Source: Streptomycetales bacterium
GTDB taxonomy: Bacteria; Actinomycetota; Actinomycetes; JBOHCZ01
NCBI GenBank assembly: GCA_050699195.1
Contig: JBOHCZ010000351.1
Coordinates: forward strand, 1 to 33,500
Reading direction: 5' to 3'
Length of the DNA: 33,500 nucleotides
The position numbers and the translations under genes were made by a program. Positions 6,286 to 22,382 of this stretch are shown here, one piece after another. Each line of letters starts with the position of its first letter. Positions within the stretch are counted from its first letter, which is position 1. A model generated the notes under the pieces. That model saw only the letters and a program-made list of their open reading frames with translations, was not told the origin of the DNA and did no database searches.

Positions 6286-6520
6286 CGTCCCCCTTCGGCC
6301 AGATGGCCTTGAACAGCAGCCCGAGCACCGGCACGGCTGCCACGCAGTAGAGGGCGTGGTAGGTGAAGGCGATCGGGAGGCCGAGCACGACCGGGCCGGT
6401 CCGCCCGTCGAGCCAGAACGGGAAGCTCGCGACGGCCATCACGACGCACACCGCCATGGCCACCCAGTACAGCGCATTGGTACGAAGCCGCGGTCGGGCC
6501 CCGGTGGAGTCGTCACTCAT
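6269..6520 (-). CDS. Small two-TM membrane protein, DUF3311-like symporter accessory
   Basis: 83 aa with two hydrophobic helices. ATGA overlap with the LLM stop (6517-6520), and its stop lies inside the symporter start region. Small DUF3311 proteins are typically encoded immediately upstream of SSF transporters. Confidence 0.6.
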   Translation of the reverse strand: MSDDSTGARPRLRTNALYWVAMAVCVVMAVASFPFWLDGRTGPVVLGLPIAFTYHALYCVAAVPVLGLLFKAIWPKGDGDTDV

Positions 6521-7701: not shown

Positions 7702-8519
7702 GCGACGCCACCCCCCTCCGCCAGGAAGCCCTGCACGGCGTCGAGAGCGGCCTCCGGCTGCTCGACGAGAGGGAGGTGTCCGGCGTCGTCGATGACCTCC
7801 AGCCGGGCATCCGGCAGCAACTCGGACCACCGGCGCGCGTACTCCAGGGGCAGCAGGCGGTCCTGCGCGCCCCAGACGAGCAGCGTCGGGCAACTCACGC
7901 GGTGCAGCCGGGCCGGCAGCTTCGGGTCGTGCAGGTAGGGGTTCCAGCCGAGATGGGCGGTGGCGATGCGGTTACGCAGGTAGCGCTCGAAGAGCGCGGG
8001 GTTCTGGTCCAGCGAAGCGGCCTGCGCGAGGGCGGGAACGCGGGCGTCCTCGGTCGCCCAGGTGAGCTCCGCGACCTCGACCGGGTCGAGGGTGAAGATG
8101 TCCGGCGTGGGGGCCGCCGCCCGCACCCCTGCCGCACCGACGAGCACCAGCCGCTCGACGCGCGCGGGCTCGATGGTGGCGAGGTCGGCCGCGAGCCAGC
8201 CGCCGAGCGACGTACCGATGACCGTGGGCTTGTCGAGGCCGGCGGCGTCGAGCAGGTCGAGGTAGAAGAACGCCAGGTCGTGCACGCTGTCGATCGCGTC
8301 GCCGTCGGCGCTGCCGTTGAACCCGGGGTGGTCAGGACGTATGACGGTGTACCGCTCCGCCAGCGCGGAGAGCGCCGGCGGCCAGGTCCCCAGATCGCCT
8401 ACCCCGTGCAGGTAGAGCAGCGGCGCCCCACTCCCCGCGGTGAGGAGGTTGATGCGTGTGCCGCGCACCGGGAGGTCGCGCTGCTCCGGCAGCAGCGCCG
8501 CCCGCGATCGCGCTGTCAT
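7698..8519 (-). CDS. Alpha/beta-fold hydrolase (meta-cleavage-product/BphD-like class)
   Basis: 273 aa. HG oxyanion motif (LYLHGVG), nucleophile elbow GTSLGG, C-terminal catalytic His context (DDAGHLP). ATG at 8519 with GAGGAG 6 nt upstream. Confidence 0.85.
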   Translation of the reverse strand: MTARSRAALLPEQRDLPVRGTRINLLTAGSGAPLLYLHGVGDLGTWPPALSALAERYTVIRPDHPGFNGSADGDAIDSVHDLAFFYLDLLDAAGLDKPTVIGTSLGGWLAADLATIEPARVERLVLVGAAGVRAAAPTPDIFTLDPVEVAELTWATEDARVPALAQAASLDQNPALFERYLRNRIATAHLGWNPYLHDPKLPARLHRVSCPTLLVWGAQDRLLPLEYARRWSELLPDARLEVIDDAGHLPLVEQPEAALDAVQGFLAEGGGVA

Positions 8520-8655
8520 CGCCGCTCCTCATCCGTGCGGTGACGTTGCAGGTGAAAGCTAGCCGTGTCGCCTCGGGGGTCTCCAATGCACGATGGTTCG
8601 CGATCGATGACTCTTGGTGATCACGCTGGCCGGAAACCGTGCTACGGTGCGGGCC

Positions 8656-9582
8656 GTGGAGCTCCGGCACCTCCGCTACTTCCTGGCTGTTGCGCAGGAG
8701 TTGCACTTCGGGCGGGCCGCCGAGCAGCTGCACATCGTGCAGCCGGCGCTCAGCAAGCAGATCGCGGCGCTCGAGAGGGAAGTCGGCGTGCGGCTGCTCG
8801 AGCGCACGAAGCGCAGCGTGCGGCTGACCCAGGCGGGCGCCGTCTTCCTCGGTGAGGCGCGCCAGGTTCTCGCCCACGCGAACCTGGCGGCCGAGCACGC
8901 GCGGGCCGCCGGTCGGGGAGAGCGTGGCGTTCTCGTCATCGGTTTCATCCCGCCCGCCCTCAACAGCGTGTTGCCGCCGGCGCTGCGCGCCCACCGGCTG
9001 CGGTATCCGGACGTACGGCTGGTGCTGCGCGAGTCGCCGAACCGGGTGGCCGTCGATGGCGTGCTGAGCAGCCAGCTGCACCTGGCCTTCGTGCGGCTGC
9101 CCATCGAGGACACCGCCCTGTGCTGCGAGACCGTGCTCGAGGAACCCGTGATGCTCGCGGTCCCCGACGACCACGAGCTGGCCGATCTCGAGGAGATCCC
9201 GCTGGCCGCGCTCGCCGACGAGGCGTTCGTCATGATCCCGCGCTCCCAGGAGCAGGTGCTCCACGACTACTACATCGCGCTGTGCCTGCAGGCCGGCTTC
9301 AGCCCCCGGATCGTGCACGAGGTCAACCACCTGCTGGTCGCGGTGGGGCTGGTCGCCGGTGGGGTGGGCGTGGCCTTCGTCCCGGCGTCGACCCAGTCGG
9401 TCCTGCGGCCAGGGGTGGTCTACCGGCCCCTCAGGGAACCCACCCCGATGTTCCGGCTCGGAGCGGTGTGGCAGCCCGAGCCGAACCCGGTGGTGAGCGC
9501 CTTCCTGCAGACTCGGCCGTGGCCTCTGCAACAGGATCACCTGCCGGGTCAGCACCCGGACCGGTCCGCGGGACGCGCATGA
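8656..9582 (+). CDS. LysR-family transcriptional regulator (divergent from the hydrolase-LLM operon)
   Basis: Canonical N-terminal wHTH (ELRHLRYFLAVAQELHFGRAAEQLHIVQPALSKQIAALE). The listed ORF begins at a TTG at 8614. GTG at 8656 gives the usual M-E-L-R-H-L-R-Y-F start. Confidence 0.85.
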   Translation: MELRHLRYFLAVAQELHFGRAAEQLHIVQPALSKQIAALEREVGVRLLERTKRSVRLTQAGAVFLGEARQVLAHANLAAEHARAAGRGERGVLVIGFIPPALNSVLPPALRAHRLRYPDVRLVLRESPNRVAVDGVLSSQLHLAFVRLPIEDTALCCETVLEEPVMLAVPDDHELADLEEIPLAALADEAFVMIPRSQEQVLHDYYIALCLQAGFSPRIVHEVNHLLVAVGLVAGGVGVAFVPASTQSVLRPGVVYRPLREPTPMFRLGAVWQPEPNPVVSAFLQTRPWPLQQDHLPGQHPDRSAGRA

Positions 9583-10100
9583 AGACCCTCGTGCATCGTG
9601 CTCCGGAAGAACAGCAGCGGCTGCTTGCTGTCGTCGTGCCAGGACGCCACGACCCGCCCGATGACGATGGCGTGCGTGGGGCTGGCCACCGCGTCGACGA
9701 GCCGGCACTCGAAGACGGCCAGCACGTCACGCAGCAGCGGCGCCCCCACGAGACCGCGGTGGAACGGCACGCCGGAGAACTTGTCCCAGCCCTTGGAAGC
9801 GAAATGCCGGGCGAGATCGCCGCCGGTGGCGGAGAGCACGTTGACGGCGAAGCCCCGGCACCGGCGGATCACGTGCCAGGTGTTGGAGGTCTCGGCTAAG
9901 CACACGATGATCTGCGGCGGGTCCAGGCTCAGCGACGTGAAGGAGTTCACCGTCAGGCCGCAGTCCCCGTCGTGCGCCGAACTCGCCGTCACGACGACGA
10001 CACCGGTCACAAACTGGGCGCACGCCGACCGGAAGGCGATCTCGTCGGTGGGTGGGGGAGATGGTGAAAGCGTGTCCGCTCGTACGGCCGTGGGGCGCAC
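9549..10100 (-). CDS. Flavin reductase family protein (HpaC/RutF-like NAD(P)H:flavin oxidoreductase)
   Basis: FRSACAQFVTGVVVVT...GLTVNSFTSLSLDPP motif. The listed ORF starts at a TTG at 10163; I prefer GTG at 10100 because GAGGAGG sits 6 nt upstream. Its 3' end overlaps the LysR 3' end by 34 nt (convergent). Confidence 0.8.
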   Translation of the reverse strand: MRPTAVRADTLSPSPPPTDEIAFRSACAQFVTGVVVVTASSAHDGDCGLTVNSFTSLSLDPPQIIVCLAETSNTWHVIRRCRGFAVNVLSATGGDLARHFASKGWDKFSGVPFHRGLVGAPLLRDVLAVFECRLVDAVASPTHAIVIGRVVASWHDDSKQPLLFFRSTMHEGLHARPADRSGC

Positions 10101-10197
10101 TGCGGGCCTCCTCAAGCCTGCTCCGATACCCCATTTGTACCCGCCGCGATCGGCTATCGCCAATACAGAGCGGTCCTCGACTGATCGCCGGAGGGCA

Positions 10198-10620
10198 TCA
10201 GGGCTCGACCCGCTCGACCCGCTCGACCTCTACGACACCGTTGTCCGCGTCGATCCGGACCCGGTCCCCGGTCCTGATCACCTCGAGCGGGTCGCGGTCG
10301 AGCCCGGTCACCGCAGGGACGCGGGTGACGACGGCACCCAGGGCCACCTTCGTGGTCAGCACCGTGAAGATCATGCCCAGCGGGGCGCTGCCCATCAGCC
10401 TGGTGCTCTGGAAGAACCCGGACCATCCGGAGGACCCCTTGGCTCCGGGGAAGACCAGGATCCTTCCGGCGAACGACTGCCCGAACAGCTCGTGGCGCCG
10501 CTCGATGATGACGCCCTTCTCCGGGTCGATGCCGCCCCAGCCGGAGATCGTCTCGTAGGACACCAGCGCCTGGCCCTCGGCCACCCCCGGGACGACGGTC
10601 CTGCCGTGCAGGGTGATCAC
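10198..10620 (-). CDS. Aconitase X swivel-domain subunit (DUF126-like, AcnX small subunit)
   Basis: Only the last 140 aa of listed ORF 10198..10884 look real (VITLHGRTVVPGVAEGQALVSYETISGWGGIDPEKGVI...FPGAKGSSGWS...). GTG at 10620 forms a GTGA overlap with the large-subunit stop. Confidence 0.8.
   Translation of the reverse strand: MITLHGRTVVPGVAEGQALVSYETISGWGGIDPEKGVIIERRHELFGQSFAGRILVFPGAKGSSGWSGFFQSTRLMGSAPLGMIFTVLTTKVALGAVVTRVPAVTGLDRDPLEVIRTGDRVRIDADNGVVEVERVERVEP
10204..10230. repeat. 9-bp tandem repeat (CTCGACCCG x2 plus one imperfect copy)
   Basis: Read directly. Encodes the VERVERVEP C-terminus of the AcnX small subunit. Confidence 0.8.
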
Positions 10621-11897
10621 GGCAGGCCTCCACTCCACCGGCCGGTCACGGCCGCGTCGATGCACTCCTCCAGCGAGCCGAACCACGCCTCGATGCCGAG
10701 GATGGCGGGCAGGTAGTGCGCCTGCTTCGCGGAGTCCGTGGCGAACACCCGGGTGCCGGCCGGTGCGGCCCGGGACATCGCGGGACACGAGTCGCTGAGC
10801 ACGCGTCCGCCGGCCCGCTCGATGATCTCGGTGTAGCCGCTGCGGTCGGCCACCGCCTTGAGCGCCCGTGGCACCATGATCCACAGCTCGGTGGCGGGGC
10901 TGAGCCGGCGCCCTTCAAGTGCCCTGGCTGCCCGCCAGACCTGCTCGACGGAGGCGTGCGGGCAGCCCAGCAGCACGAAGTCGACTTCGGCGCTCGAGCC
11001 TTGTGAGTTGAGGTCGTCGTAGACGGCACGGCGTTCGCCCGGCCCGTAGGTGACGGCGGGCGGGACCGGCCTCGCGCCGAAGGCCGCCTCCAGCGTCGGG
11101 GCCTCCGGCGTGATGCCGGGGATGTGGTAGAGCTCGACCCCGCCTGAGGTCGCGGCCGCGGCGCCGAAGTGCTTGAGGTCGGCGAGATCGGGCCGTGCGA
11201 TGTCGCCGGCGACTACGGGGCGCTCCTCCTGCACCAGCCCGCCGGCGAAGTAGCCGAGCATGCCCCACTCCAGGAAGCCCTCGACCGGAACCCCGACGTC
11301 GATCAGGTGGGTGCCGTAGCGGTTCTCCGGCAGGTGGTTGCCCCAGCAGGGGACCTTCCCCGTCAGGCTGGCAGCTCCGGTGGACGCCGTCCCCTCGCAG
11401 TTGGTACGGGCGCCGAGGACGGAGTTGGCGTAGACGACCGCCGACGACTCCATCCACGCGCAGTGCTCCCCACGGACCGGCAGGTTGCCCACCTGGTAGG
11501 GCGTGCAGGTGGCCAGGATGTTCACGCCCCGGCGCCCGTAGAACGCCTCGGCGTCGTCCTGGAGCTGGATCAGCTCCTTCGGGTAGGGTGCCACGCCCTC
11601 CGCGTCGGGACCGAAACCGTGCTGGAGCTGGCAGGTCGGCACCCGCATGGCCGGGATCTCGATGTCGTCGTCGCAGTCCAGGTTGATGACGGCGTACGCC
11701 TTGCTCCAACCACCGGCCTTGACCAGGCGGACCTTCGCCGGGGACGGCTGGGTCATCGTCCCGGCCACGTTGCGCACGTCGCATAGCCGCTCGCAGTCGA
11801 GCGCCTCGCCGTAGCGGACGAGCAGGTCCATCGCCGCAGCGACGGCGGGGCCCTCCACGCCGTCGAGCATGGCCTTCTCCTCGCCGGATAGCTTCAC
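10617..11897 (-). CDS. Aconitase X catalytic-domain subunit (DUF521-like, AcnX large subunit)
   Basis: Last 426 codons of the 1032-aa listed ORF (VKLSGEEKAMLDGVEGPAVAAAMDLLVRYGEAL...ATCTPYQ...GCPHAS...). GTG at 11897 forms a GTGA overlap with the IlvD/Edd stop (11894-11897). The upstream part of the listed ORF is an alternate frame of the IlvD/Edd gene. Confidence 0.8.
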   Translation of the reverse strand: MKLSGEEKAMLDGVEGPAVAAAMDLLVRYGEALDCERLCDVRNVAGTMTQPSPAKVRLVKAGGWSKAYAVINLDCDDDIEIPAMRVPTCQLQHGFGPDAEGVAPYPKELIQLQDDAEAFYGRRGVNILATCTPYQVGNLPVRGEHCAWMESSAVVYANSVLGARTNCEGTASTGAASLTGKVPCWGNHLPENRYGTHLIDVGVPVEGFLEWGMLGYFAGGLVQEERPVVAGDIARPDLADLKHFGAAAATSGGVELYHIPGITPEAPTLEAAFGARPVPPAVTYGPGERRAVYDDLNSQGSSAEVDFVLLGCPHASVEQVWRAARALEGRRLSPATELWIMVPRALKAVADRSGYTEIIERAGGRVLSDSCPAMSRAAPAGTRVFATDSAKQAHYLPAILGIEAWFGSLEECIDAAVTGRWSGGLP

Positions 11898-13597
11898 GGG
11901 CGCGCTCCTCGCTGCTGGTGCTCGCCGGTCGTGAGTACGGCGCCGTCCCGCAGCGGCCGTACGACACGCTGGTAGATGGACAGCCAGCCACGCTCGGTGG
12001 TGTCCGGGGTGAGGGTCAGCCCTGCCCGCCGCCTGGCCAGCTCGTCGTCCGGGACGTCGAGGTCGACGCGGCGGGCGGCGACGTCGATGCGGATGCGGTC
12101 GCCGTCCTCGACCAGCGCCAGCGGCCCTCCGTCCGCCGCCTCGGGGGACACCTCGCCGACGACGATGCCCTTGTTCACAAGGCCGGACAGCTGGCCGTCG
12201 GTCACCACGGCGACCTGCGCGGTGAGGCCCGCACCGTCCAGCTGGAACACCACCCGGGAGGCCATCCCCATGCCGGGGCTGCCCCGGGGGCCGAGACCCC
12301 TGAGCACGACGACCTGGCCGGTTTCGATCTCGCCGTTCTGCAGCCCGTCGACGGCCTCCTCCGGCGAGTTGTAGACCTTCGCCGGCCCGGTGAAATGGAG
12401 TTCCCGATCGTCCGCGACCGCAAGCTTGACGATCCCCGCGGCCGGGGCCAGGCTGCCGCGGACCACCACGATGGTGGGCCGCAGGCCGAGCGGCCGGTCG
12501 ACCGGCCGGATGACCTCGCTGTCCACTGCGCGTACGTCGGACAGGTTCTCGCCGACTGACCGGCCGGTCAGTGTGCGGGCGTCGGTGTGCAGGAGGCCTG
12601 CCAGCTGTTTCATGATGGCGCTGGCACCGCCGGCGGCTTCGAACGCCTCGATGGAGTGCTCGCCGTTGGGCCTGACCGCCGTCAGCAGCGGAGTCTGGTC
12701 GGCGTAGCGCTCGAAGAGCTCGTAGACGTCGACCTCGCACTCCGCCTCCTCGGCGGTGGCCTGCAGGTGCTTCACCGAGTTGATGGAACCGCTGACCGCG
12801 AGCATCACCATGGCGGCGTTCGCGAAGGCTTCGGGTGTGAGCACGTCGCGGGGCTTGGTGTCCGCCAGCACCATCTCCACGATGCGCTGCCCGGCGCGTT
12901 CCACCGCTTCCCACATCCGGGGGCTGTTGGCGAGCACCGGGGTGGTGCCGGGCAGCGCCATACCGAGCGCCTCGCACGCGATGTGCATCGAGTTCGCCGT
13001 ACCCATCCCGGCGCACACACCTGGACCGCGGACGGCGTTCTCGCTCATCTCGGTCAGCTCGGGTAGGCTGATCCGGCCCCTGGCGAAGTGCCCCGCGGCC
13101 AGGAACACGTCCTCGATGTCGCAGTGCCCGCCGCGGTACTCGCCGCACGGCTGGTACCCGCAGGCGACGACGACCGTCGGGATGTTCAGCCGCCCCGCGG
13201 CCATCAGCTGCGCGGGGGCGGTCTTGTCGCACGAGGCCAGGCAGACCATGCCGTCGAGCAGGGCGCCCTCGACGCCGGCCTCGATGTCGTTGACGATCAG
13301 ATCGCGGCTGGCCAGGATGTAGCCGCCACGGTGGCCTGCGCTGTGGATGAAGTCGCTCGGTGCTGTCGTGCGTACCTCGAAGCCCACCCCCCCGGCGCCG
13401 CGGATGGCCTGTTTGGCCCGCCGTGCTATCTCGTCCAGGTGGCTGTAGCAGATCGCCAGATCCGACGACGAGTTCACGACGGCGATCTTGGGTTTCACCA
13501 TGTCCTCGTCGGACAGTCCGAGCGCCCGCCATTGCGCCCGCCGGGTGGCCCACCGCGAGCTGCCGGGCTCGAAGTTGCTGCGCAGCGTCTTCGCCAC
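11894..13597 (-). CDS. IlvD/Edd-family dehydratase (dihydroxy-acid / sugar-acid dehydratase family)
   Basis: 567 aa from GTG at 13597 (VAKTLRSNFEPGS...), with GGAGG 8 nt upstream. Family motifs include LASCDKTAPAQLMAAGRLNIP and PGVCAGMGTANSM (Fe-S cysteines). Confidence 0.85.
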   Translation of the reverse strand: MAKTLRSNFEPGSSRWATRRAQWRALGLSDEDMVKPKIAVVNSSSDLAICYSHLDEIARRAKQAIRGAGGVGFEVRTTAPSDFIHSAGHRGGYILASRDLIVNDIEAGVEGALLDGMVCLASCDKTAPAQLMAAGRLNIPTVVVACGYQPCGEYRGGHCDIEDVFLAAGHFARGRISLPELTEMSENAVRGPGVCAGMGTANSMHIACEALGMALPGTTPVLANSPRMWEAVERAGQRIVEMVLADTKPRDVLTPEAFANAAMVMLAVSGSINSVKHLQATAEEAECEVDVYELFERYADQTPLLTAVRPNGEHSIEAFEAAGGASAIMKQLAGLLHTDARTLTGRSVGENLSDVRAVDSEVIRPVDRPLGLRPTIVVVRGSLAPAAGIVKLAVADDRELHFTGPAKVYNSPEEAVDGLQNGEIETGQVVVLRGLGPRGSPGMGMASRVVFQLDGAGLTAQVAVVTDGQLSGLVNKGIVVGEVSPEAADGGPLALVEDGDRIRIDVAARRVDLDVPDDELARRRAGLTLTPDTTERGWLSIYQRVVRPLRDGAVLTTGEHQQRGARP

Positions 13598-13614
13598 CGT
13601 CAACGCCTCCCGGC

Positions 13615-14910
13615 TCAGTCGAGGTTCGCGCGCAGCCGCGCGCGCAGCTGGGCCGGGTCGACGTCGCGGACGCTCTCCTTGCCGGCCAGGTCGAGCGCGT
13701 GGGCCGCGCCGGCACCCATGGCGGCGCAGGGACCCATCACCCGCACGCTGGACAGCGCCGCGGCGTCCGCGTCGATGCACCGCCCGGCGGCCAGCAGGTT
13801 GTGCGTGCCCGCCGGGATCATGCTGCGCAGCGGGACGTAGTGGACGTGGTCGCCGTCGAAGGTCTCCCAGGTGTAGCCCTCGGCGCGGTCGTGCAGCTCG
13901 ATCGGCCAGGCCGTGCGCGCCACCGCGTCGCCGAACCGGACGCCCGAGCGCACCTCGTCGACGGTCAGCTGGTGCAGCCCCTGGATCCAGCGCGTCTGGC
14001 GGCGGCCCGGGAGCCCGTACGCCCGCACCCGTGCGGCTCCGAACGCCTCGGGGAACTCCGCACGCAGGAACGCGACGACCCGGTCGGCCTGCGCCTTCCC
14101 GTCGAGCCCGGCCTCCGATGCCCGGACGGGGTCGAGCGGGGCCTCGATGTGGGTCATGTTCAGCACAGCGGTGCCGCGGCCGGGGAAGAAGAAGGCCAGC
14201 CCTTCCTGGCGCACCAGCCCGTACTCGGCGGCCTTCGCCCTGGCGCGTTCGGCCAGCGCGCCCGTCTCCGGCTGGTGCGACTCGTCGACGTGCTCGACGA
14301 TGACCTGCTGCGAACCGTAGATCGTCCGCTCAGGGACCCGGCAGGGCTGGCCCGCCTCCCAGCAGAGCGCCGCGTCCCCGGTCGCGTCGACGAAGCCGGT
14401 GGCGGTCACGGTCACGTTGCCGTAGCGCGAGGCCAGCGAGATCGACCGGACACGCCCGTCGGCGACCTCGACCCCCTGGATGACCGCGCCCAGCACGACC
14501 CGCACGCCCAACGCGCGGATGGTGTTCTCCAGCCAACGGCCCAGCGCCACCTCGTCGAAGTAGACCGTCGTCGTGTGGTTGCGCTGGAAGTGCAGGTCCC
14601 CGGCCGCACCGAGATCCCGGAAGATGTCGTCGAAGATGCCGCGGGTCAGCTGCCGGTGTTCCGGAGCGTTCCCGAAGACACCGGCGAACAGCCCGATCAG
14701 GGAGTTGACCATCTGGCCGCCGAGGACGGGGAGCCCGTCCACCAGTACGACGTCACGCCCCAGCCGCGCGGACTCGATCGCGGCCGACATGCCGGCGATC
14801 CCCGCGCCGACGACGCACACGTCGCCGCCGACCTCGTGGACGGGCCCGCCGGCGGGCTTGGTGACGGTGTGAACCGGTACGTCGGTCAGCGGGTGGGGCA
14901 TGGCCGGCAC
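13615..14910 (-). CDS. FAD-dependent oxidoreductase (FAD_oxidored-type)
   Basis: Dinucleotide-binding motif VCVVGAGIAGMSAAIESARLGRDVVLVD...GGQ. GTG at 14910 with GAGAGG 9 nt upstream; ATG at 14901 is an alternative. Confidence 0.8.
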   Translation of the reverse strand: MPAMPHPLTDVPVHTVTKPAGGPVHEVGGDVCVVGAGIAGMSAAIESARLGRDVVLVDGLPVLGGQMVNSLIGLFAGVFGNAPEHRQLTRGIFDDIFRDLGAAGDLHFQRNHTTTVYFDEVALGRWLENTIRALGVRVVLGAVIQGVEVADGRVRSISLASRYGNVTVTATGFVDATGDAALCWEAGQPCRVPERTIYGSQQVIVEHVDESHQPETGALAERARAKAAEYGLVRQEGLAFFFPGRGTAVLNMTHIEAPLDPVRASEAGLDGKAQADRVVAFLRAEFPEAFGAARVRAYGLPGRRQTRWIQGLHQLTVDEVRSGVRFGDAVARTAWPIELHDRAEGYTWETFDGDHVHYVPLRSMIPAGTHNLLAAGRCIDADAAALSSVRVMGPCAAMGAGAAHALDLAGKESVRDVDPAQLRARLRANLD

Positions 14911-14951
14911 GCTACGCGGCCTCTCGCCGGTGCCGGAAACAACGAATTCAG

Positions 14952-15935
14952 CTAACCGGTATCAACGCGGTCGATGGGACGTGATGGAGCCGCCTGTACG
15001 AGGAGCCGGCGCAGCCAGGCGTGCGCCGGGTCGTCCTCGTAGTGGTCGTGCCACCACAGTGCCTCGCTGATGGGCTCCGGCTCGCCGGGGCACTCGAGCA
15101 CCGTGAGGTCCAGCCGGTCGGCGAACCTCGCGGCGAGGCGCTCCTGCATCAGCGCGACCCGGTCGGTACCCGCGATGAAATGCGGCACCGCAAGGTAGCT
15201 CTCCACGCGCACCGCGACCCGCGGCCGGATGCCGAGCAGCCTGAGCTGGCGGGTGATCGGGGCCGCCGAGGGGTGGTCCTGGTCCTGGTGGTAGGGCGCG
15301 ACCCAGGACAAGGCGGCGAGGTCGTCCAGGCCGAGGGTGCCGGGAGTGCCCGTGCCCAGTGCCCGGTTCCCGGTCGACACAACGCACACCCATCGGTCGC
15401 GGAAAAGTTCGACCGAGGAGGTGTCCGGCAGGTGGAAGCGGTTCACCGGCGGGGCCACGATGCCGTCGACGAGGCGGACGGTCTCGGCGTACTCCGTGAC
15501 CAGCGACTCCCTGACCAGCCTCACGTGCAGCCTCGCCTGGGGTGCCGCCGCGTGGACGAGCTGGGACAGCCGCTCGCCCATGACCGCGACGGTGTAGTCG
15601 GCCATCAGCAGGGTGAACTCGCGCTGCGACGTGGCCGGGTCGAAGTGCGTGCTCGCTGCGAACAGCCGCTCGGCTGCCGCGCAAACCGCCTCGACCTGCC
15701 CGGCCAGCTGCGTCGCGAGCGGCGTCAGCAGGTAGCCGCCCTTGCCGCGCACCAGCAGCTCGTCACCGAAATGCCTGCGCAGCCGGGACAGTGCGGCACT
15801 GGCGGCCGGCTGCGTGACTCCGAGACGCCCGGCCGCCCGGGTGACGTTGCGTTCGCGGATAAGCTCCCGCAAGGCGACGAGCAGGTTCAGGTCGAGGTTC
15901 GCCAGGTGTGCGCCAGGACGGTTCGGGCCGCTCAC
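14952..15935 (-). CDS. LysR-family transcriptional regulator embedded in the co-directional array
   Basis: wHTH (LDLNLLVALRELIRERNVTRAAGRLGVTQPAASAALSRLRRHFGDELLVR). GTG at 15935 forms a GTGA overlap with the DinB-like stop (15932-15935). Confidence 0.85.
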   Translation of the reverse strand: MSGPNRPGAHLANLDLNLLVALRELIRERNVTRAAGRLGVTQPAASAALSRLRRHFGDELLVRGKGGYLLTPLATQLAGQVEAVCAAAERLFAASTHFDPATSQREFTLLMADYTVAVMGERLSQLVHAAAPQARLHVRLVRESLVTEYAETVRLVDGIVAPPVNRFHLPDTSSVELFRDRWVCVVSTGNRALGTGTPGTLGLDDLAALSWVAPYHQDQDHPSAAPITRQLRLLGIRPRVAVRVESYLAVPHFIAGTDRVALMQERLAARFADRLDLTVLECPGEPEPISEALWWHDHYEDDPAHAWLRRLLVQAAPSRPIDRVDTG

Positions 15936-16447
15936 CGGATGCCGTCCCCCTCCGGGTGCCGGAGGTGACCCGCCTGGTCCGCCAGCAGCAGGTCCCGGGT
16001 GATCTCCAGCTGGCCGTGATGCTGGGCAAGCTCCTCGAACACGTGCAGGAGGGCGGCCCCCCGGCGCAGGCTGATGGGGGTGCCGGCGTACCGCGCGGGC
16101 GGGGCGTCAGTCAGCGGCTCGTCACACAGCAGGGCGTCCGGGCCGCCTTGCCGAAGATCGTCGCGCAGCCGCCGCCTGGCGGCGGTGACCCGGTCGCTCA
16201 GCCCGGCGACCGGCCCGGCCGCGGCGAACTCGGCGTCGCGGTCACGTTCGACCGGCCGTCCGGCGACGAGCTGCCCGGCCCAGTAGTCCATGACCCCCAG
16301 GCAGTGCGTCAGGATCGCGTAGGGGGAGTTCGCGCCGGGCAGCGGCGGACGCCGGTTGGCCCGCTCGTCACCGAGGTCCGTGACGATCTTCACCATGCCG
16401 TCGAGGGCACGGTCCACGAGGTGGAGGTAGTCGTCGGTGCTGATCAC
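15932..16447 (-). CDS. DinB/DUF664-like four-helix-bundle protein (mycothiol-transferase-like family)
   Basis: 171 aa. DinB-like pattern (DRALDGMVKIVTDL...ANSPYAILTHCLGVMDYWAG...). GTG start with GGAG 6 nt upstream. Confidence 0.65.
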   Translation of the reverse strand: MISTDDYLHLVDRALDGMVKIVTDLGDERANRRPPLPGANSPYAILTHCLGVMDYWAGQLVAGRPVERDRDAEFAAAGPVAGLSDRVTAARRRLRDDLRQGGPDALLCDEPLTDAPPARYAGTPISLRRGAALLHVFEELAQHHGQLEITRDLLLADQAGHLRHPEGDGIR

Positions 16448-16508
16448 TGCGGCTCCGCATCGATACCGGCCGGGACCCCTCTCCCCGATCCGGGGCAGCC
16501 TCGGGCGT

Positions 16509-17339
16509 CTAGGTGGTCGCGTGATCGGTCCCGACGACGGACTCGTGCCACGGGATGAAGAGCCGCTTCAAGCCGATGACCCCGAGGAACAGCGAGAAGC
16601 CGAGCAACGTCAGCACCACGATCACCGCGAACAGCTGCTCCGCGTTCAGCGCGTTGAGACTGACCACGATCAGGTAGCCCAGGCCCTGGTTGCCGCCGAG
16701 GTACTCGCCGACGATCGCGCCGATGATGGAGAACACGATCCCGATCTCCATGCCGGCGAACACGTAGGGCAGCGTGCTGTGGTACTCGAGCCGCCAGAAC
16801 GTCGCCCACCGGCTCGCGTTCAGGCTGCGCATCACGTCGCGGTGCCCAGGTTCGACCGACCGCACCCCGAGCATCGAGTTGAGCATGATCGGGAAGAACG
16901 CCAGCATCGCGACGATGATGATCTTCGACGTCACGCCGAAGCCGAACCAGATGATGAACAGCGGCACGAGGGCGATCTTGGGGACCACCTGCGAGGCCAC
17001 GAGCAGGGGCCGCAGCGCTCGCTCGAGCCAGCGGAGCCGCCCCAGCACAGCGCCCATCCCCACGCCCAGCACCAGCGCTATGCCGAAGCCGGCGAGCGTC
17101 TCGATCAGCGTGACGCGCAGGTGGCCCACGAAGCCCCGCGACCCGACGAGCTCGGCCATCCCGCCGAGAACCTGCTCGGGCTGGGGCAGCACGAACTTCG
17201 AGATGTCGAACACCGCGATGGTGAGCTTCCAAAGGATGACGAAGAGGAAGAGCAGTACGGGCGTGCTGATCCAGGGCAGCAGCTTGCCGCGTAACAGCTC
17301 GCCCACCGGCGCGCGCTCCTGCGGCTGGGGAGAACTCAT
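16509..17339 (-). CDS. ABC transporter permease (NitT/TauT, SsuC-like family)
   Basis: 276 aa with about 6 TM segments and a binding-protein-dependent permease pattern. ATGA overlap with the ATPase stop (17336-17339). Confidence 0.85.
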   Translation of the reverse strand: MSSPQPQERAPVGELLRGKLLPWISTPVLLFLFVILWKLTIAVFDISKFVLPQPEQVLGGMAELVGSRGFVGHLRVTLIETLAGFGIALVLGVGMGAVLGRLRWLERALRPLLVASQVVPKIALVPLFIIWFGFGVTSKIIIVAMLAFFPIMLNSMLGVRSVEPGHRDVMRSLNASRWATFWRLEYHSTLPYVFAGMEIGIVFSIIGAIVGEYLGGNQGLGYLIVVSLNALNAEQLFAVIVVLTLLGFSLFLGVIGLKRLFIPWHESVVGTDHATT

Positions 17340-18271
17340 GGGCTCTGCTCCTCTTCGGTGTAGAGCTGGTGACGCAGCTCCCGGACGGTGTCCTGGAAGG
17401 CCGAAGCGGTCTGGATCTCGAGCGCCCGCGGGCGCTCGAAGTCGACGGGAGTCACGACGCGCAACCGCCCCGGTCGCGACGACAGAAGCAGAACCCGGTC
17501 GGCCAAAAAGACGGCCTCCGTGATCGAGTGGGTGACGAAGACCACCGTCGCCCCGATCGCCGCCGTGATCGACTGCAGCTCCAGGTTCATCCGGTCGCGG
17601 GTGAGCGCGTCGAGCGCCCCGAACGGCTCGTCCATCAGCAGGATCTCCGGGTTGTAGCTCAGGGCGCGGGCAATCGCCACGCGCTGGCGCATGCCTCCGG
17701 AGAGCTCGCGCGGGTAGGACCTTTCGAAGCCGGTGAGCCCCACGAGCTCGCTGAGCTCACCCGCCCTGGCGCGCCACTCGCGCCTGCCGGCCCCCCGCAG
17801 GCGCAGCGGCAGGCCGATGTTGTCCTCGACCGTGTACCAGGGGAACAGGTGCGCATCCTGGAAGACCAGCCCGAGCATGCGAAGCGCCTGGTCGTCGCGC
17901 CGTGCGCCGCGCCACAGCGGCTCGCCGCCGACCCGTACCGCACCTTCGGTCGGGCGGATCAGCCCCGCCAGGATCCGCAGCAGCGTCGTCTTGCCGCAGC
18001 CGGACTGCCCGACCAGCGCGACGAACTCCCGGTGTGCCACCGACAGGGTGATGTCGTCGAGCGCAAGGGTCGAGCTGCGCCGCGTCAGGTAGCGCATCGT
18101 GAGGCCGTCGCCCTCAATGAAGTGATCGCCCGACGGGGCGCGACCGTCCACCGACCCGCTCGAGGCCGGCCCGGCGTCCGTCGCATCCCGCGCGTTGCGG
18201 GTGACGCTGGCCGTCGAGGTCTCTCCCCTGCTCACGTCACTCACTCCACTCCGCACCACGGCGCGCGACAA
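17336..18271 (-). CDS. ABC transporter ATP-binding protein (NitT/TauT, SsuB/TauB-like)
   Basis: Walker A GQSGCGKTT, signature LSGGMRQRVAIARAL, Walker B ILLMDEPFGALD. The listed start is a TTG at 18271. The true start is uncertain: GTGs at 18235 or 18151 are possible, and the first ~40 aa are low complexity. Confidence 0.85.
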   Translation of the reverse strand: MSRAVVRSGVSDVSRGETSTASVTRNARDATDAGPASSGSVDGRAPSGDHFIEGDGLTMRYLTRRSSTLALDDITLSVAHREFVALVGQSGCGKTTLLRILAGLIRPTEGAVRVGGEPLWRGARRDDQALRMLGLVFQDAHLFPWYTVEDNIGLPLRLRGAGRREWRARAGELSELVGLTGFERSYPRELSGGMRQRVAIARALSYNPEILLMDEPFGALDALTRDRMNLELQSITAAIGATVVFVTHSITEAVFLADRVLLLSSRPGRLRVVTPVDFERPRALEIQTASAFQDTVRELRHQLYTEEEQSP

Positions 18272-18294
18272 CCGACCCTAACGTCCCCGGGCGT

Positions 18295-19374
18295 CTAACT
18301 CACGAGCTCGTTGCTGAACCACTTCTGCGGGTCCTTCCCCTTCGCCGCTTGGCCGACCCCCACCAGGTCGTCGTACACCTTCTGCCAGTTCTCCGGCACG
18401 GTATTGAGCATGTTCTCCTCGCCCGCGTAGAACCAGGCATCGACCTGCTGCTCCAGCACCCCCTTGGCGATGCTGTCCGCCTTGAGCTCCGGGAAGTCGT
18501 GCTTGCTACGGACCAGCTCGATGATCTTCTTGAAGCCGTTGCCGCGGTCGGCGAGGACATCCTCCATCCCGGCCTTGATCGCGTTCATGTAGCCCTGGAG
18601 CAGGTCGCGCTGCTCCTGCAGGGAACGCCGGGAGGTGATATAGCACTGGCCCTCCTCGACGTACTCCGACGGGTCGAGCACCGTTGCCTTGGGGATCTGC
18701 TGATCGAAGATGACCTGCTCGACCGAGCCGATGACATAGCCGTCGATGCGGCCCTTCTCGACGAGCGCGAAGGTCCCCGGCGAAAAGCCCGTGACCTGCC
18801 GGCCGACGCTGCCGAGCGGAACGTCCCGGGAGGCCAGCATGAGATCAATGGTGATCTCGCTCGTACCGCCCTCGGACGGGATACCGATCTTCTTGCCCCG
18901 GAAGTCCTCGGGCGTCGTGAGTGACTTCTCGTCCGCAGAGACGATCGCGATGGGTGACTTGTGCCACTGCATGCCGATGTTGACCAGCGGCGCGTCCTGG
19001 TCGGCGATGGCGATGACCGTCTCGATCGCGCCCGCCCTGGTGAGGAGGGCGCTGCCCTGCAGGATCGACTGCAGCGCCTGCGCAGAGCCGCGCGTCGACT
19101 GGATGTCGACCTTGAGGCCCTCCTGCTTGAAGTGCCCGTTGAGGTCGCCGAGGATCTCGCAGACGAAGCCGAGGTTCAGCGGGATGATCGTGAGAAAGGT
19201 GACCGGCTCCAGGCCCTTGGCTCCGCCGGCCGACTGCTCGTCGCCGCACCCGGCGACGAGCATCCCGCTGACGCTCGAAGCGAAGAGCGTCCCTGCGGCA
19301 CCGGCCAGGAACGAGCGCCTTGTCGGGTGCCGCCACTCCTGTTGACCCCGACCGTCCCCCATCCGACTGTCCAT
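18295..19374 (-). CDS. ABC transporter substrate-binding lipoprotein (NMT1/THI5/SsuA-like) with Tat-type signal
   Basis: ATG at 19374 with GGAGGAG upstream. Twin-arginine signal (HPTRRSFLAGAAG) followed by the lipobox LVAGC. Confidence 0.8.
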   Translation of the reverse strand: MDSRMGDGRGQQEWRHPTRRSFLAGAAGTLFASSVSGMLVAGCGDEQSAGGAKGLEPVTFLTIIPLNLGFVCEILGDLNGHFKQEGLKVDIQSTRGSAQALQSILQGSALLTRAGAIETVIAIADQDAPLVNIGMQWHKSPIAIVSADEKSLTTPEDFRGKKIGIPSEGGTSEITIDLMLASRDVPLGSVGRQVTGFSPGTFALVEKGRIDGYVIGSVEQVIFDQQIPKATVLDPSEYVEEGQCYITSRRSLQEQRDLLQGYMNAIKAGMEDVLADRGNGFKKIIELVRSKHDFPELKADSIAKGVLEQQVDAWFYAGEENMLNTVPENWQKVYDDLVGVGQAAKGKDPQKWFSNELVS

Positions 19375-19502
19375 GGACTCCTCCTCACTGCGCGATCCGC
19401 GCGGCCTTGCCCGAACCGGGGACACGGTGCGGTCGTTCAGGTGCGGTACCACACCGCCGGCAACGCGGCCCACGCCGCCGACGTAGGCCTTAGGTTCGCG
19501 GA

Positions 19503-19531
19503 ATCATGTCGACCGTCGCGGAGTCTGTCAA
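19503..19531 (-). promoter_or_regulatory. Candidate internal sigma70-type promoter upstream of the ABC importer genes
   Basis: On the minus strand: TTGACA (19531-19526), a 17-nt spacer, then CATGAT (19508-19503). It lies in the 190-nt gap between the TPP-enzyme stop and the SBP start. Confidence 0.35.
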
Positions 19532-19564
19532 GCGTTGGGCAGGCAAGGGCTACCGGCCCAACCT

Positions 19565-21295: not shown

Positions 21296-21359
21296 CGTCC
21301 TCCTCAGGGCGCTTCCACGGGTGAGCGGGCGTCGAGTGCTGCGTGACCGGGTTGAGCTG

Positions 21360-21587
21360 GCCGAAAAGCATAACTATGACCCTGGCTGTCGTCTAGAGAG
21401 AAGTCACGCTTCAACCGCCGCTGTTGCGGGCGGACTGACGTCCCTGGCTGGTGGGCGCGGACCGGGTTCTCGGGTTGGTGCCGATCTTGGCCAGCCGTTC
21501 ACACAGAGGCGGGTGAGGATTTTATACGGAATTATCAATAAATTTAGACCGAGATCGTATCGTCGACGCGATCGGGAGGGAGCTTCG
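21360..21587. promoter_or_regulatory. AT-rich divergent control region between the TPP-enzyme array and the GntR gene
   Basis: Contains the most AT-rich stretch of the window (GGATTTTATACGGAATTATCAATAAATTTAGACC, about 21518-21548). Also a near-palindrome CATA-AC-TATG (21369-21378), CGTCGACG, and GGGAGGGAG before the ATG at 21588. Confidence 0.4.
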
Positions 21588-22313: not shown

Positions 22314-22324
22314 GTGTCCGCATT

Positions 22325-22344: not shown

Positions 22345-22382
22345 CCGTCGTGTGGCAGGTGCTGCGGCAGCCTGATCGGCGA

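Follow-up and report, generated by a model that had tools for sequence, protein, structure and literature searches.

The window analyzed here comprises 33,500 nucleotides of contig JBOHCZ010000351.1 from a Streptomycetales bacterium. Four consecutive minus-strand genes were assigned in the initial annotation to a FAD oxidoreductase, an IlvD/Edd dehydratase, and the two subunits of an aconitase X (AcnX; DUF521 and DUF126), and both the translations of the open reading frames (ORFs) and Pfam matches (PF12831, PF00920 with PF24877, PF04412, and PF01989) bear this out. All four ORFs gave clean translations, and their minus-strand frames are backed by the third-codon-position GC profile. The features of the locus are collected in the table.

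Table. Features of the AcnX locus, in window coordinates
Feature	Position	Strand	Details
Flavin reductase	9549..10163	-	PF01613, 2e-39; 35 nt downstream of the AcnX small-subunit gene
AcnX small (swivel) subunit	10198..10620	-	140 aa; PF01989, 5e-24
AcnX large (catalytic) subunit	10617..11897	-	426 aa; PF04412, 2e-110, full length
IlvD/Edd-family dehydratase	11894..13597	-	567 aa; PF00920 (ILVD_EDD_N), 4e-99; PF24877 (ILV_EDD_C), 9e-56
Spacer, flavoprotein stop to IlvD start	13598..13614	-	17 nt, gccgggaggcgttgacg; GGGAGG ribosome-binding site read from sequence
FAD-dependent oxidoreductase (FAD_oxidored)	13615..14910	-	PF12831, 5e-77, full length; 431 aa from GTG 14910
LysR-family regulator	14952..15935	-	HTH_1 and LysR_substrate; co-directional, directly upstream of the flavoprotein gene
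DinB/mycothiol-S-transferase-like protein	15932..16447	-	PF04978 and PF12867; within the gene string
ABC transporter permease, TauC/SsuC-related	16509..17339	-	BPD_transp_1 and NCBIfam matches
ABC transporter ATPase	17336..18271	-	ABC_tran; co-conserved with permease and binding protein
NMT1/THI5-type substrate-binding protein of ABC transporter	18295..19473	-	PF09084, 9e-24
Promoter-like site	19503..19531	-	TTGACA, 17 nt, CATGAT; upstream of the binding-protein gene
TPP enzyme (PRK08327)	19565-21295		

The gene junctions described previously, including the spacer with its ribosome-binding site, could be read from the sequence. A GTGA overlap at 10620..10617 contains the stop of the AcnX large subunit and the start of the small subunit, and a second GTGA at 11897..11894 contains the IlvD stop and the large-subunit start, with GAGGAG located 8 nt upstream. 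Overlaps of four bases are frequent in GC-rich operons and are unremarkable alone. The overlap between the AcnX subunits is also present in Actinomadura and Paroceanicella; the IlvD/AcnX overlap is absent from the loci of both genera because gene order differs among lineages. The earlier suggestion that two dehydratases and a flavoenzyme are made in fixed stoichiometry was an over-reading, because, of these junctions, only the coupling of the AcnX subunits was seen again when two further loci with called genes were checked. The flavoprotein gene itself stands, with one small correction to its start; since the database orthologues are 428 aa long, translation probably begins at ATG 14901 (428 aa). 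The AlphaFold model of this protein is poor (pLDDT 59), and a fold search and a PDB profile search matched only the generic FAD-binding fold or the N-terminal FAD-binding segment.

The proposed extent of 10198-14910 captures the enzymatic core but omits a conserved LysR regulator and ABC transporter. In the window, the functional unit begins with the NMT1-type ABC transporter (19473), continues with the LysR regulator, and ends at the AcnX small subunit (10198). Of 80 actinobacterial loci, 48 have a regulator orthologue (57–76% identity) alongside and 26 have a permease homologue (47–82% identity) linked to AcnX; the Actinomadura operon has the order binding protein-ATPase-permease-IlvD-flavoprotein-AcnX large subunit-AcnX small subunit. 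The promoter-like site, found in a consensus scan that gave one site where 0.5 were expected and hence a weak candidate, may be the start of the entire co-directional gene string. The DinB-like protein has no homologue among 165 related loci and is not conserved with the cluster. An LLM monooxygenase and the flavin reductase flank the cluster in the window and are likewise not conserved among the 165 loci; the flavin reductase may belong to a feeder module peculiar to this lineage and not to the conserved core.

Conservation of the module was assessed in 160 AcnX-centered loci from Actinomycetota and Pseudomonadota, with genes within 9.5 kb counted as neighbors. The most constant AcnX partner is the PF12831 flavoprotein (149 of 160 loci, both subtypes counted), followed by the IlvD-like subfamily (128 of 160). 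Both occur together in 125 loci from two phyla with shuffled gene order, which settles in the affirmative whether the neighbors of AcnX are kept in related genomes. In the reverse direction, 62 of 78 IlvD-like-centered loci carry the AcnX large subunit. At least five gene orders occur in actinobacteria alone, and the trio is kept in Variovorax/Acidovorax and Microbacteriaceae despite a divergent flavoprotein subtype (~25% identity). The IlvD-like gene may not be obligatory for the module, because 32 of the 160 loci lack it inside this distance; one MAG carries it on a separate contig. The module is also found in Paroceanicella, in Burkholderia/Paraburkholderia/Pandoraea, in Alicyclobacillus, and in one Gemmatimonadota genome. 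A LysR or IclR regulator always adjoins it, and it is accompanied by one of at least five types of organic-acid transporter that are swapped among lineages, namely NMT1-type ABC, branched-chain-type ABC, MFS of the metabolite:H+ or aromatic-acid:H+ symporter family, TRAP DctP, and TctC. The operons of Actinomadura and Variovorax encode these three enzymes, transport, and regulation, and nothing else. No paper found in the searched literature describes the cluster.

The CDKTAP and GVCAGMGTANSM motifs reported for the IlvD/Edd protein were found, and its three Cys residues, CDK motif, and SG-motif Ser align with those of MtDHAD and AtDHAD. The match of the protein to the TIGR00110 ilvD equivalog reaches 494 bits (cut-off 618), and it falls under the cut-off of every NCBIfam equivalog. 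Across 128 cluster-linked homologues from both phyla, the signature TDG(Q/H)(L/F)SGLV(N/C)xG replaces TDGRFSGG(T/S)xG. Judged by its sequence, the protein belongs to a distinct subfamily and is not a housekeeping dihydroxy-acid dehydratase.

For the AcnX large subunit, the closest match in the PDB is 7cnr, an archaeal type-II large subunit (7e-59). Cys131, Cys312, and Cys371 occupy the alignment positions of Cys110, Cys283, and Cys342, which bind the cluster in the Thermococcus kodakarensis (Tk) enzyme; Glu150, Ser151, Ser152, Lys391, and Tyr395 are kept; and identity to orthologues from many actinomycete genera is 72–88%. The small subunit contains a putative general base, Ser63, in the motif KGSSGWS and Trp28 in ISGWGG, both motifs being kept across ~160 orthologues; the roles of these residues are assigned by homology to AtAcnX Ser70 and Trp35 and TkAcnX Ser62 (PMC8184944). 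In a tree of 123 sequences, the large subunit falls in a clade apart from both AtAcnX (33% identity) and Tk (39%), with 57–78% identity inside its own clade; the pair thus lies outside the clade of dehydratases for cis-3-hydroxy-L-proline. The statement that AcnX has just two assigned activities agrees with the literature examined, and uncharacterized bacterial type-II subclasses were already noted by Watanabe et al. (2021).

We consider it reasonably probable that these four genes encode the core enzymes of a conserved catabolic module that is under regulator control, has spread between phyla, and breaks down an organic acid taken up by the cell, most likely a hydroxy-carboxylate, a label that denotes a broad class and not an identification because the observed transporter families also carry sulfonates and aromatic acids. 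The encoded proteins belong to the families named above, their catalytic residues are intact, and co-localization with regulators and organic-acid transporters is conserved; we infer from the ensemble the catabolic direction and the chemical class of the substrate and, as conjecture, the sequence of reactions and what the flavoprotein does. The acid would be brought in by the transporter. The AcnX heterodimer is predicted to hold a [4Fe-4S]-type cluster on three Cys residues. Acting on a 3-hydroxy-carboxylate without an alpha-amino group, it would use small-subunit Ser63 to take the proton from C2 and the cluster to remove the hydroxyl from C3; in reverse, the enzyme would hydrate an enoate. 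Working as an Fe-S/Mg enzyme whose base is a Ser alkoxide, the IlvD-like protein would convert a 2,3-dihydroxy-carboxylate intermediate by dehydration into a 2-oxo acid. The flavoprotein may supply the single redox step linking both dehydrations, through either C-C desaturation or reduction beside the carboxylate or hydroxyl oxidation, and the final 2-oxo acid would pass to central metabolism.

Of the two established AcnX roles, that of a dehydratase for cis-3-hydroxy-L-proline is very improbable for this pair, even though split bacterial type-IIa AcnX enzymes have this activity and splitting is not unusual (PMC8184944). The Trp equivalent to AtAcnX Trp35 is kept and the NCBIfam LhpI equivalog matches, but at 222 bits against a cut-off of 700. 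AtAcnX Asp203, a ligand of the proline (imino) nitrogen whose alanine mutant is inactive (PMC8184944), is replaced with Ala45 here, and the loop variants common among ~160 orthologues have either Ala or Cys at this position; Thr72 is replaced with Gly, and Ile206 with Thr or Met. As first reported for the window, Pfam scans of its likely-gene ORFs gave no proline-racemase-like epimerase, D-hydroxyproline dehydrogenase, or pyrroline-2-carboxylate reductase, and none was among the recurrent neighbor families of ~240 related loci, which were likewise scanned with Pfam. True hydroxyproline loci hold these genes beside a fused AcnX, and, as a positive control, fused AcnX proteins at 33% identity do sit in such textbook loci. 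A bacterial phosphomevalonate (mevalonate-5-phosphate) dehydratase of the modified mevalonate pathway deserves no greater credence. The nearest solved structure, the T. kodakarensis large subunit, has all three cysteines of the cluster in common with the window protein, as well as Glu, Ser, Lys, and Tyr, and some orthologues carry the automatic UniRef name "Phosphomevalonate dehydratase large subunit"; the identity is just 39%, however, and the clade is another. The phosphate-binding N-terminal loop of Tk (Gly48-Val49-Ser50, Asn53) reads AGTMTQPSP here and differs again in proteobacterial orthologues, the Asn79-bearing region has no alignment, mevalonate kinase, UbiD/UbiX-type decarboxylase, and isopentenyl-phosphate kinase were all missing from the neighbors examined, and the regulator and uptake transporter fit catabolism. 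As far as residues and phylogeny can tell, the pair is a type-II enzyme outside both characterized subclasses, and both established specificities are excluded, in agreement with the initial proposal of an uncharacterized route; the four-gene core would mean a third activity for aconitase X.

A biosynthetic or salvage pathway resembling branched-chain amino acid synthesis, with the IlvD-like protein as the DHAD counterpart, the AcnX subunits as that of LeuCD, and the TPP enzyme as that of AHAS, would yield a non-proteinogenic amino acid, cofactor precursor, or secondary metabolite. We regard this as unlikely. The enzyme families do parallel IlvD and LeuCD, TPP enzymes recur in seven Microbacteriaceae loci, and the AcnX large subunit is unusually conserved among actinomycete genera, but the TPP gene of the window has no homologue among 165 related loci, and no KARI, IPMS, IPMDH, NRPS, or PKS genes occur among recurrent cluster neighbors. 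Several lineages have operons of only the three enzymes, an uptake system, and a LysR/IclR regulator, and catabolic modules typically exchange their uptake transporter from one lineage to another; transporters and LysR regulators are also found with certain biosynthetic or salvage operons. Decidedly unlikely is a substrate that is an organosulfonate having or gaining a carboxylate (sulfolactate- or dihydroxypropanesulfonate-type, C3/C4), from which one elimination would release sulfite or prepare its release. The TauABC/SsuABC-type transporter of the window, a TauD/TfdA-family dioxygenase within the operon in 19 proteobacterial loci, the flanking LLM monooxygenase and flavin reductase, and a TauE-family exporter after the Actinomadura operon all point this way, as does the similar variety of transporters (TRAP, TTT, MFS, and NMT1-ABC) in known sulfonate degraders. 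However, just 1 of the 165 loci carries TauE, the flanking pair is not conserved, Xsc, SuyAB, CuyA, and sulfite dehydrogenase were not found, the TPP enzyme scores 121 against an Xsc cut-off of 676, and TauD and these transporter families are equally usual for ordinary carboxylates. Catabolism of an imported hydroxy-carboxylate is the reading we prefer.

Among known systems, tricarballylate utilization by tcuRABC involves a LysR regulator, the FAD dehydrogenase TcuA, which forms cis-aconitate for aconitase, and the MFS transporter TcuC. The combination of LysR, FAD enzyme, organic-acid MFS, and a member of the aconitase superfamily that acts on the product is an analogy that serves as a lead only: TcuA is a FAD_binding_2 rather than a PF12831 protein, TcuB has no counterpart here, an IlvD-like dehydratase is added, and the Amycolatopsis/Streptomyces MFS matches TcuC below threshold and more weakly than it matches metabolite:H+ symporters and shikimate transporters. 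With the IlvD/Edd family (MtDHAD, 6ovt; AtDHAD, 5ze4; L-arabinonate dehydratase, 5j84), the IlvD-like protein shares the full-length two-domain architecture, three Cys, the CDK (Mg/carbamyl-Lys) motif, and the catalytic Ser. It is ~38–40% identical to the [2Fe-2S] DHADs, in contrast to which it has TDGQLSGLVNKG instead of TDGRFSGGTxG beside the catalytic Ser and three further changed active-site motifs, changes common to cluster-linked homologues of two phyla. AtAcnX belongs to the same superfamily as the window enzyme and has the catalytic Ser, Glu, Lys, and Tyr and the Trp35-equivalent in common; it is fused and binds [2Fe-2S] through Cys273, Cys508, and Cys510, whereas the third ligand here follows the Tk pattern (Cys312), and the three substitutions, low identity, and gene context given above set the two apart. 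The archaeal type-IIb mevalonate-5-phosphate dehydratases (T. kodakarensis and A. pernix; 7cnr/7cns) differ in clade, in the phosphate-binding loop, in an extra ~20-residue stretch present here at 55-107, and in context, the bacterial genes lying in a transporter-and-regulator operon with the IlvD-like and flavoprotein genes and not with isoprenoid genes. They share with the present pair the large and swivel subunits, the three cysteines coordinating a [4Fe-4S]-type cluster, the carboxylate- and C3-OH-holding residues Glu, Ser, Lys, and Tyr, and the small-subunit Ser general base, and the mechanism is probably alike, an alpha,beta-elimination of water from a 3-hydroxy-carboxylate.

The four minus-strand ORFs proposed in the initial annotation, encoding the small swivel and large catalytic subunits of an aconitase X (AcnXs and AcnXL), an IlvD/Edd-like dehydratase and a FAD-dependent flavoprotein, were borne out by stop-free translations and strong Pfam family matches, and profile hidden Markov model (HMM) searches supported all four family assignments. 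Reading of the sequence likewise confirmed the two GTGA overlaps (10620..10617 and 11897..11894) and the 17-nt spacer at 13598-13614, which contains GGGAGG. The flavoprotein more likely starts with the ATG at 14901 than with the GTG at 14910, as its orthologues are 428 amino acids long. The third-codon-position GC profile supports one unbroken minus-strand gene run from ~9450 to ~21400, and one promoter-like site (weak evidence) lies just 5' of the binding-protein gene. An Rfam scan of positions 9000-22000 (E <= 1) gave no riboswitch or other RNA match hinting at a ligand. Because the G+C content of the window is ~70%, long spurious ORFs are frequent; the AcnXL frame, for example, continues without a stop for 1032 codons across the IlvD gene (10617-13715, minus strand), an artefact of the 70% G+C and a possible trap for ORF-based gene callers.

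Coordinates of the core genes, their neighbours and other features of the window
Feature	Coordinates	Strand	Family match or location
AcnX swivel subunit (AcnXs)	10198-10620	-	PF01989, 5e-24, 84 bits (cut-off 27)
AcnX large subunit (AcnXL)	10617-11897	-	PF04412, 2e-110, entire profile covered, 370 bits (cut-off 31.5)
IlvD/Edd-like dehydratase	11894-13597	-	ILVD_EDD_N, 4e-99; ILV_EDD_C, 9e-56
FAD_oxidored flavoprotein	13615-14910	-	PF12831, 5e-77, 260 bits, profile positions 1-416 of 416
LysR regulator	14952-15935	-	Upstream of core, same strand
DinB-like gene	15932-16447	-	Upstream, same strand
ABC permease	16509-17339	-	Upstream, same strand
ABC ATPase	17336-18271	-	Upstream, same strand
NMT1-type binding protein of ABC transporter	18295-19473	-	Upstream, same strand
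Promoter-like site	19503-19531		Just 5' of binding-protein gene
TPP enzyme	19565-21295		Beyond binding-protein gene
Flavin reductase	9549-10163	-	Downstream of AcnXs
LysR regulator, divergent	8614-9582	+	Downstream of core
Alpha/beta-hydrolase	7698-8519	-	Downstream of core
Luciferase-like monooxygenase (LLM)	6517-7893	-	Downstream of core
Amidohydro_2 protein	3573-4520	+	PF04909
Second organic-acid locus	21168-29904		
FAD_binding_2 flavoprotein	27134-28816		Within second organic-acid locus
Isocitrate/isopropylmalate-dehydrogenase-family enzyme	28609-29904		Within second organic-acid locus
Truncated MFS gene	29996-30724		
Reverse-transcriptase fragment	31633-32616		RVT_1, 4.5e-8

Conservation of the gene set was examined in 80 species-representative actinobacterial loci, with AcnXL 72-88% identical, and in 80 proteobacterial loci gathered with a Burkholderia orthologue as the seed. 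Within 9.5 kb of the actinobacterial AcnX genes, the PF12831 flavoprotein was encoded in 73 of the 80 loci and the IlvD-like protein in 60, with both present in 60 and neither in 7; an orthologue of the LysR regulator was found in 48, the NMT1-type binding protein in 30, and the permease and the ATPase in 26 each. At least five gene orders occur in this set. Of the proteobacterial loci, 76 encoded the flavoprotein nearby and 68 the IlvD-like protein; 65 had both and a single locus had neither. The reciprocal search, centred on IlvD-like genes, recovered AcnXL in 62 of 78 loci and the flavoprotein in 57 of 78. The trio is maintained in Variovorax/Acidovorax and Microbacteriaceae with a second PF12831 subtype of only ~25% identity, and a Gemmatimonadota metagenome-assembled genome (MAG) also has the gene set. 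Operons range from that of Actinomadura madurae (IclR, binding protein, ATPase, permease, IlvD, FAD, AcnXL, AcnXs, LysR) to those of Variovorax (FAD, IclR, AcnXL, AcnXs, IlvD, TctC, TctC), Alicyclobacillus (LysR, IlvD, FAD, MFS, AcnXL, AcnXs), a Paroceanicella plasmid (LysR, IlvD, FAD, AcnXL, DUF126, with a TRAP transporter nearby) and Burkholderia/Paraburkholderia/Pandoraea (a divergent LysR, then IlvD, MFS, TauD-family dioxygenase, AcnXL, AcnXs, FAD, MFS, porin), where FAD denotes the flavoprotein gene. Since gene order is shuffled yet co-localisation persists across phyla, there is strong evidence that the core genes function together, and the association of AcnX with its IlvD/Edd and flavoprotein neighbours, initially noted in this one stretch, holds in both 80-locus sets. 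The TPP enzyme, DinB, flavin reductase, LLM, alpha/beta-hydrolase, FAA hydrolase, SSF transporter, MetE-like and MBL proteins of the window were not conserved in 165 related loci and were therefore kept out of the core.

The nearest relative in the genome collection is the Streptosporangiales MAG Dino_bin12 (L001/L169; AcnXL 88% identical), whose AcnX/FAD/ABC locus has no IlvD gene. In this MAG a 77%-identical IlvD-like gene is found on another contig, with no AcnX or FAD gene nearby, and thus a gene missing from the neighbourhood is not necessarily missing from the genome. The plasmid collection contained the Paroceanicella and Burkholderia orthologues, while the other plasmid matches that were opened were hydroxyproline-type fused AcnX (Paracoccus, Sulfitobacter) or distant AcnX (Cupriavidus). 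The latter, on Cupriavidus necator plasmid p1 (L168, 9001-13732), is an AcnX pair of 40% identity accompanied by a TctC receptor and an RraA-like aldolase (PF03737, HMG/CHA-aldolase family), with no IlvD or flavoprotein; it is another uncharacterised AcnX subclass, its substrate possibly a tertiary-hydroxy di- or tricarboxylate. In Alicyclobacillus kakegawensis, a large-subunit gene of the conventional aconitase family (PF00330, LeuC-like) lies with a short neighbouring ORF (L196, 3876-5637) ~4 kb upstream of the IlvD-FAD-MFS-AcnXL-AcnXs operon, beside a sugar-type MFS.

Residue roles in AcnX were taken from a structural study (PMC8184944) and assigned to the window proteins by alignment. Cys131, Cys312 and Cys371 of AcnXL align with the three cluster ligands of TkAcnX, the type-IIb phosphomevalonate dehydratase of T. 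kodakarensis; by this alignment AcnXL has the three Cys ligands of the type-IIb [4Fe-4S] cluster. Glu150, Ser151, Ser152, Lys391 and Tyr395 align with the TkAcnX residues binding the carboxylate and the C3-OH, and Ser63 of AcnXs, within KGSSGWS, matches the general base. The cluster Cys and catalytic residues are kept across ~160 orthologues. Because the cluster ligands, the carboxylate- and C3-OH-binding residues and the general base all match, the pair should be a working 3-hydroxy-acid dehydratase or hydratase. The specificity residues are another matter. In AtAcnX, the characterised fused dehydratase of cis-3-hydroxy-L-proline, the pyrrolidine nitrogen and ring are contacted by Asp203, Thr72, Trp35 and Ile206, of which Asp203 binds the proline nitrogen and is essential (PMC8184944). 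These residues are mostly replaced in the window pair (Asp203 to Ala45, Thr72 to Gly65, Ile206 to Thr or Met), only Trp35 being retained, as Trp28. TkAcnX contacts the phosphate through backbone Gly48-Val49-Ser50, Asn53 and Asn79 (PMC8184944); the corresponding loop differs in the window AcnXL (A45-G46-T47-M48-T49-Q50-P51) and varies between actinobacterial and proteobacterial orthologues, and the Asn79 region does not align owing to an insertion at 55-107.

Against the NCBIfam LhpI equivalog NF051439 (cut-off 700), the large and small subunits scored 222 and 66.5 bits, and the solved structure nearest to AcnXL is the archaeal type-II large subunit 7cnr (7e-59). An exhaustive HMMER search returned 530 AcnX representatives of 50% identity clusters at E <= 1e-30. 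In a neighbour-joining tree of 123 large subunits, which has no support values yet a large identity gap, the window AcnXL and its synteny-defined orthologues form a compact clade (57-78% identity), apart from both characterised enzymes: AtAcnX clusters with fused proteins from real hydroxyproline loci (33-35% identical to the window AcnXL), and TkAcnX is placed elsewhere (39% identical), leaving AcnXL outside the archaeal clade. Pfam scans of the ORFs chosen as probable genes in the window, in agreement with the initial annotation, found no hydroxyproline epimerase, D-hydroxyproline dehydrogenase or Pyr2C reductase, and the same three families were absent among recurrent neighbour families of the Pfam-scanned related loci. 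As a control, the fused AcnX on the Paracoccus and Sulfitobacter plasmids (n = 2) adjoins genes for 4-hydroxyproline epimerase, proline-racemase-family, Ldh-family (Pyr2C reductase-type) and FAD oxidoreductase proteins; in contrast to these hydroxyproline loci, the window locus lacks that gene set. No mevalonate-pathway genes were present among the neighbours examined. As far as sequence and context can show, the hydroxyproline role (by residues, LhpI score, tree and neighbours) and the phosphomevalonate role (by the 39% identity, the separate clade and the neighbours) are both out, and the original proposal that this AcnX lies outside its two assigned functions stands.

The IlvD-like protein is ~38-40% identical to [2Fe-2S] dihydroxy-acid dehydratases (DHADs) and retains the two-domain IlvD/Edd fold, three Cys, the CDK motif and the catalytic Ser. 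It scored under all NCBIfam equivalog cut-offs, with 494 bits against TIGR00110 (cut-off 618) and 526 bits against PRK00911 (cut-off 644). Where the canonical motifs are TDGRFSGG and GxGACGGMYTANTM, this protein has TDGQLSGLVNKG and GPGVCAGMGTANSM, replacements that are conserved in the subfamily. Four active-site motifs unlike those of DHAD, namely TDG(Q/H)(L/F)SGLV(N/C)xG, (G/S)PGVCxG(M/L/I)GTAN(S/T)M, APSDF(I/V)xxAG and SSSxLAxC(F/Y)SHL, are kept in 128 cluster-linked homologues from both phyla. Judged by these sequence features, the protein is a subfamily of its own and is not to be taken for a housekeeping ilvD. The flavoprotein matched PF12831 over its full length, with an N-terminal GxGxxG FAD-binding fold. 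Sequence and profile searches of the PDB matched the N-terminal FAD-binding segment only, and no solved structure of a PF12831 member was detectable by sequence search. An AlphaFold2 model built from a 35-sequence alignment was poor (pLDDT 59), and Foldseek comparison of it with the PDB gave only generic FAD-fold matches with TM-scores of 0.2-0.35.

A LysR- or IclR-type regulator always adjoins the module, the uptake system is swapped among lineages (NMT1-type ABC, branched-chain-type ABC, TRAP DctP, TctC, and MFS of the metabolite:H+ and aromatic-acid:H+ symporter families), and several operons consist solely of the three enzymes, transport and regulation. For these reasons the module is most likely catabolic for an organic acid, this being the pattern expected of such a module. 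AcnX would eliminate water from a 3-hydroxy-carboxylate without an alpha-amino group, or catalyse the reverse hydration, the IlvD-like enzyme would dehydrate a 2,3-dihydroxy-carboxylate to a 2-oxo acid, and the flavoprotein would provide one flavin-dependent redox step; we infer the order of the steps, the flavoprotein reaction and the substrate. Homology of the binding protein to PDB entries was uninformative as to its ligand, the best matches being 3qsl, labelled 'putative exported protein' and itself uncharacterised, and, at E = 0.003, a thiamine-pyrimidine binding protein. Less likely is a role in a biosynthesis akin to that of branched-chain amino acids, given that the TPP gene of the window is unconserved in the 165 related loci and that no other biosynthetic genes are among the recurrent neighbours. 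A sulfonate substrate is possible at low probability, the thin evidence for it being a TauABC-like transporter in the window, a TauD-family dioxygenase in related loci and a TauE exporter at just one locus. Among specific substrates, quinate/shikimate would fit one oxidation and two dehydrations and was rejected on the ground that C1 of quinate lacks the alpha-hydrogen which an IlvD- or AcnX-type elimination requires; carnitine/gamma-butyrobetaine was dismissed for a futile cycle and the wrong transporter types, and aldarates/pentarates, also considered, would leave the flavoprotein no job.

Within the catabolic reading, one specific and rather improbable version is a hitherto undescribed, CoA-independent route in which new AcnX and new IlvD/Edd activities, bridged by the PF12831 flavoenzyme, act on a beta-substituted or tertiary 3-hydroxy acid. 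Such an acid would be one that ordinary beta-oxidation cannot process, and it would be converted by way of an enoate and a 2,3-dihydroxy acid to a 2-oxo acid; candidates would be acids of the mevalonate, citramalate or hydroxycitrate type, or a hydroxy acid freed from a lactone. Lineage-specific feeders would then be a TauD-type dioxygenase in Burkholderiaceae, LLM and esterase in the window and Alicyclobacillaceae, and Amidohydro_2 in other actinomycetes. If true, AcnX would gain a third function and IlvD/Edd a new specificity, and a role would for the first time be defined for this PF12831 subfamily.

Several of these putative feeders recur. Homologues of the TauD-family dioxygenase were found in 19 proteobacterial loci; in one variant operon (L085-L094, L097, L100, L103; Burkholderia, Paraburkholderia, Glaciimonas, Pandoraea) a TauD/TfdA-family 2-oxoglutarate dioxygenase lies directly 5' of AcnXL, with two aromatic-acid:H+ symporter-family MFS and a porin. 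Amidohydro_2 proteins occur in ~17 actinobacterial loci, the window included, and 11 other actinobacterial loci encode, no more than 10 kb from AcnX, a homologue 50-65% identical to the window protein. Immediately 3' of AcnXs, at least some loci without a nearby IlvD-like gene (e.g. L045, L072) have a second Amidohydro_2 type. The Amidohydro_2 protein could be a pathway-accessory lactonase, decarboxylase or hydratase. Directly 3' of AcnXs in the window (6517-10163) are a two-component LLM, an alpha/beta-hydrolase and a flavin reductase, which may form a feeder that turns a ketone first into a lactone or ester and from there into a hydroxy acid. An Alicyclobacillaceae MAG operon (FAD, IlvD, SDR, LLM, alpha/beta-hydrolase, MFS, AcnXL, AcnXs; L228) encodes, at 11837-14920, an LLM and a hydrolase 37% and 35% identical to those of the window, and the LLM/hydrolase module is absent from the other ~240 related loci. 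It is speculation that the TauD, Amidohydro_2 and LLM/hydrolase enzymes produce the hydroxy acid from a ketone, a lactone or an unhydroxylated acid. A Microbacteriaceae variant (L050, L054, L064-L066, L073, L077-L080; Microbacterium, Agromyces) combines the AcnX pair with a 382-aa protein that matches neither Pfam nor NCBIfam, a UGSC-family protein (PF24696), a divergent PF12831 flavoprotein and an IlvD gene on the opposite strand. Acyl-CoA synthetase, acyl-CoA dehydrogenase, MaoC, SDR and aldehyde dehydrogenase genes were noted there by eye, without HMM check, and this variant hints at downstream processing via CoA esters. A TPP enzyme accompanies AcnX in related Microbacterium loci (e.g. L057).

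Elsewhere in the window lies a second, separate organic-acid locus with two GntR/FCD regulators, an SDR, a fused TctA-TctB, a TctC, the FAD_binding_2 flavoprotein and the isocitrate/isopropylmalate-dehydrogenase-family enzyme. In the adjoining 29996-32616 region, the truncated MFS (242 aa) groups with the metabolite:H+ symporter-type MFS sited between IlvD and AcnXL in Amycolatopsis/Streptomyces loci and is followed by the reverse-transcriptase fragment, and G+C falls to ~66% near 31000-32000. This MFS transporter gene may have been interrupted when a retroelement or group II intron inserted.

No branch of the aconitase superfamily is less well understood than AcnX, for which just two reactions are known, and Watanabe et al. 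(2021) described bacterial type-II subclasses IIc-IIf that lack the landmark residues of either known activity and await characterisation. A full-text search found no description of an AcnX/IlvD-like/PF12831 cluster in the searched library. In soil bacteria from four phyla or more, the clade to which the window AcnX belongs has two fixed partners (a PF12831 flavoprotein and an IlvD/Edd protein of a distinct subfamily) and is accompanied by organic-acid transporters that are interchangeable, and an orphan family thereby becomes a defined, testable three-enzyme problem. The differing types of binding protein should share one ligand, providing a direct experimental handle on the substrate; because the partners are conserved and the binding proteins interchangeable, a third AcnX function is directly testable. 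Its solution would reveal a catabolic pathway common in Variovorax, Paraburkholderia, Pandoraea, Amycolatopsis, Streptomyces and Microbacterium and would correct the automatic names 'dihydroxy-acid dehydratase' and 'phosphomevalonate dehydratase' on the cluster genes. Set beside known systems, the cluster is not a new kind of system; it is a real, widespread and uncharacterised variant inside known enzyme families.
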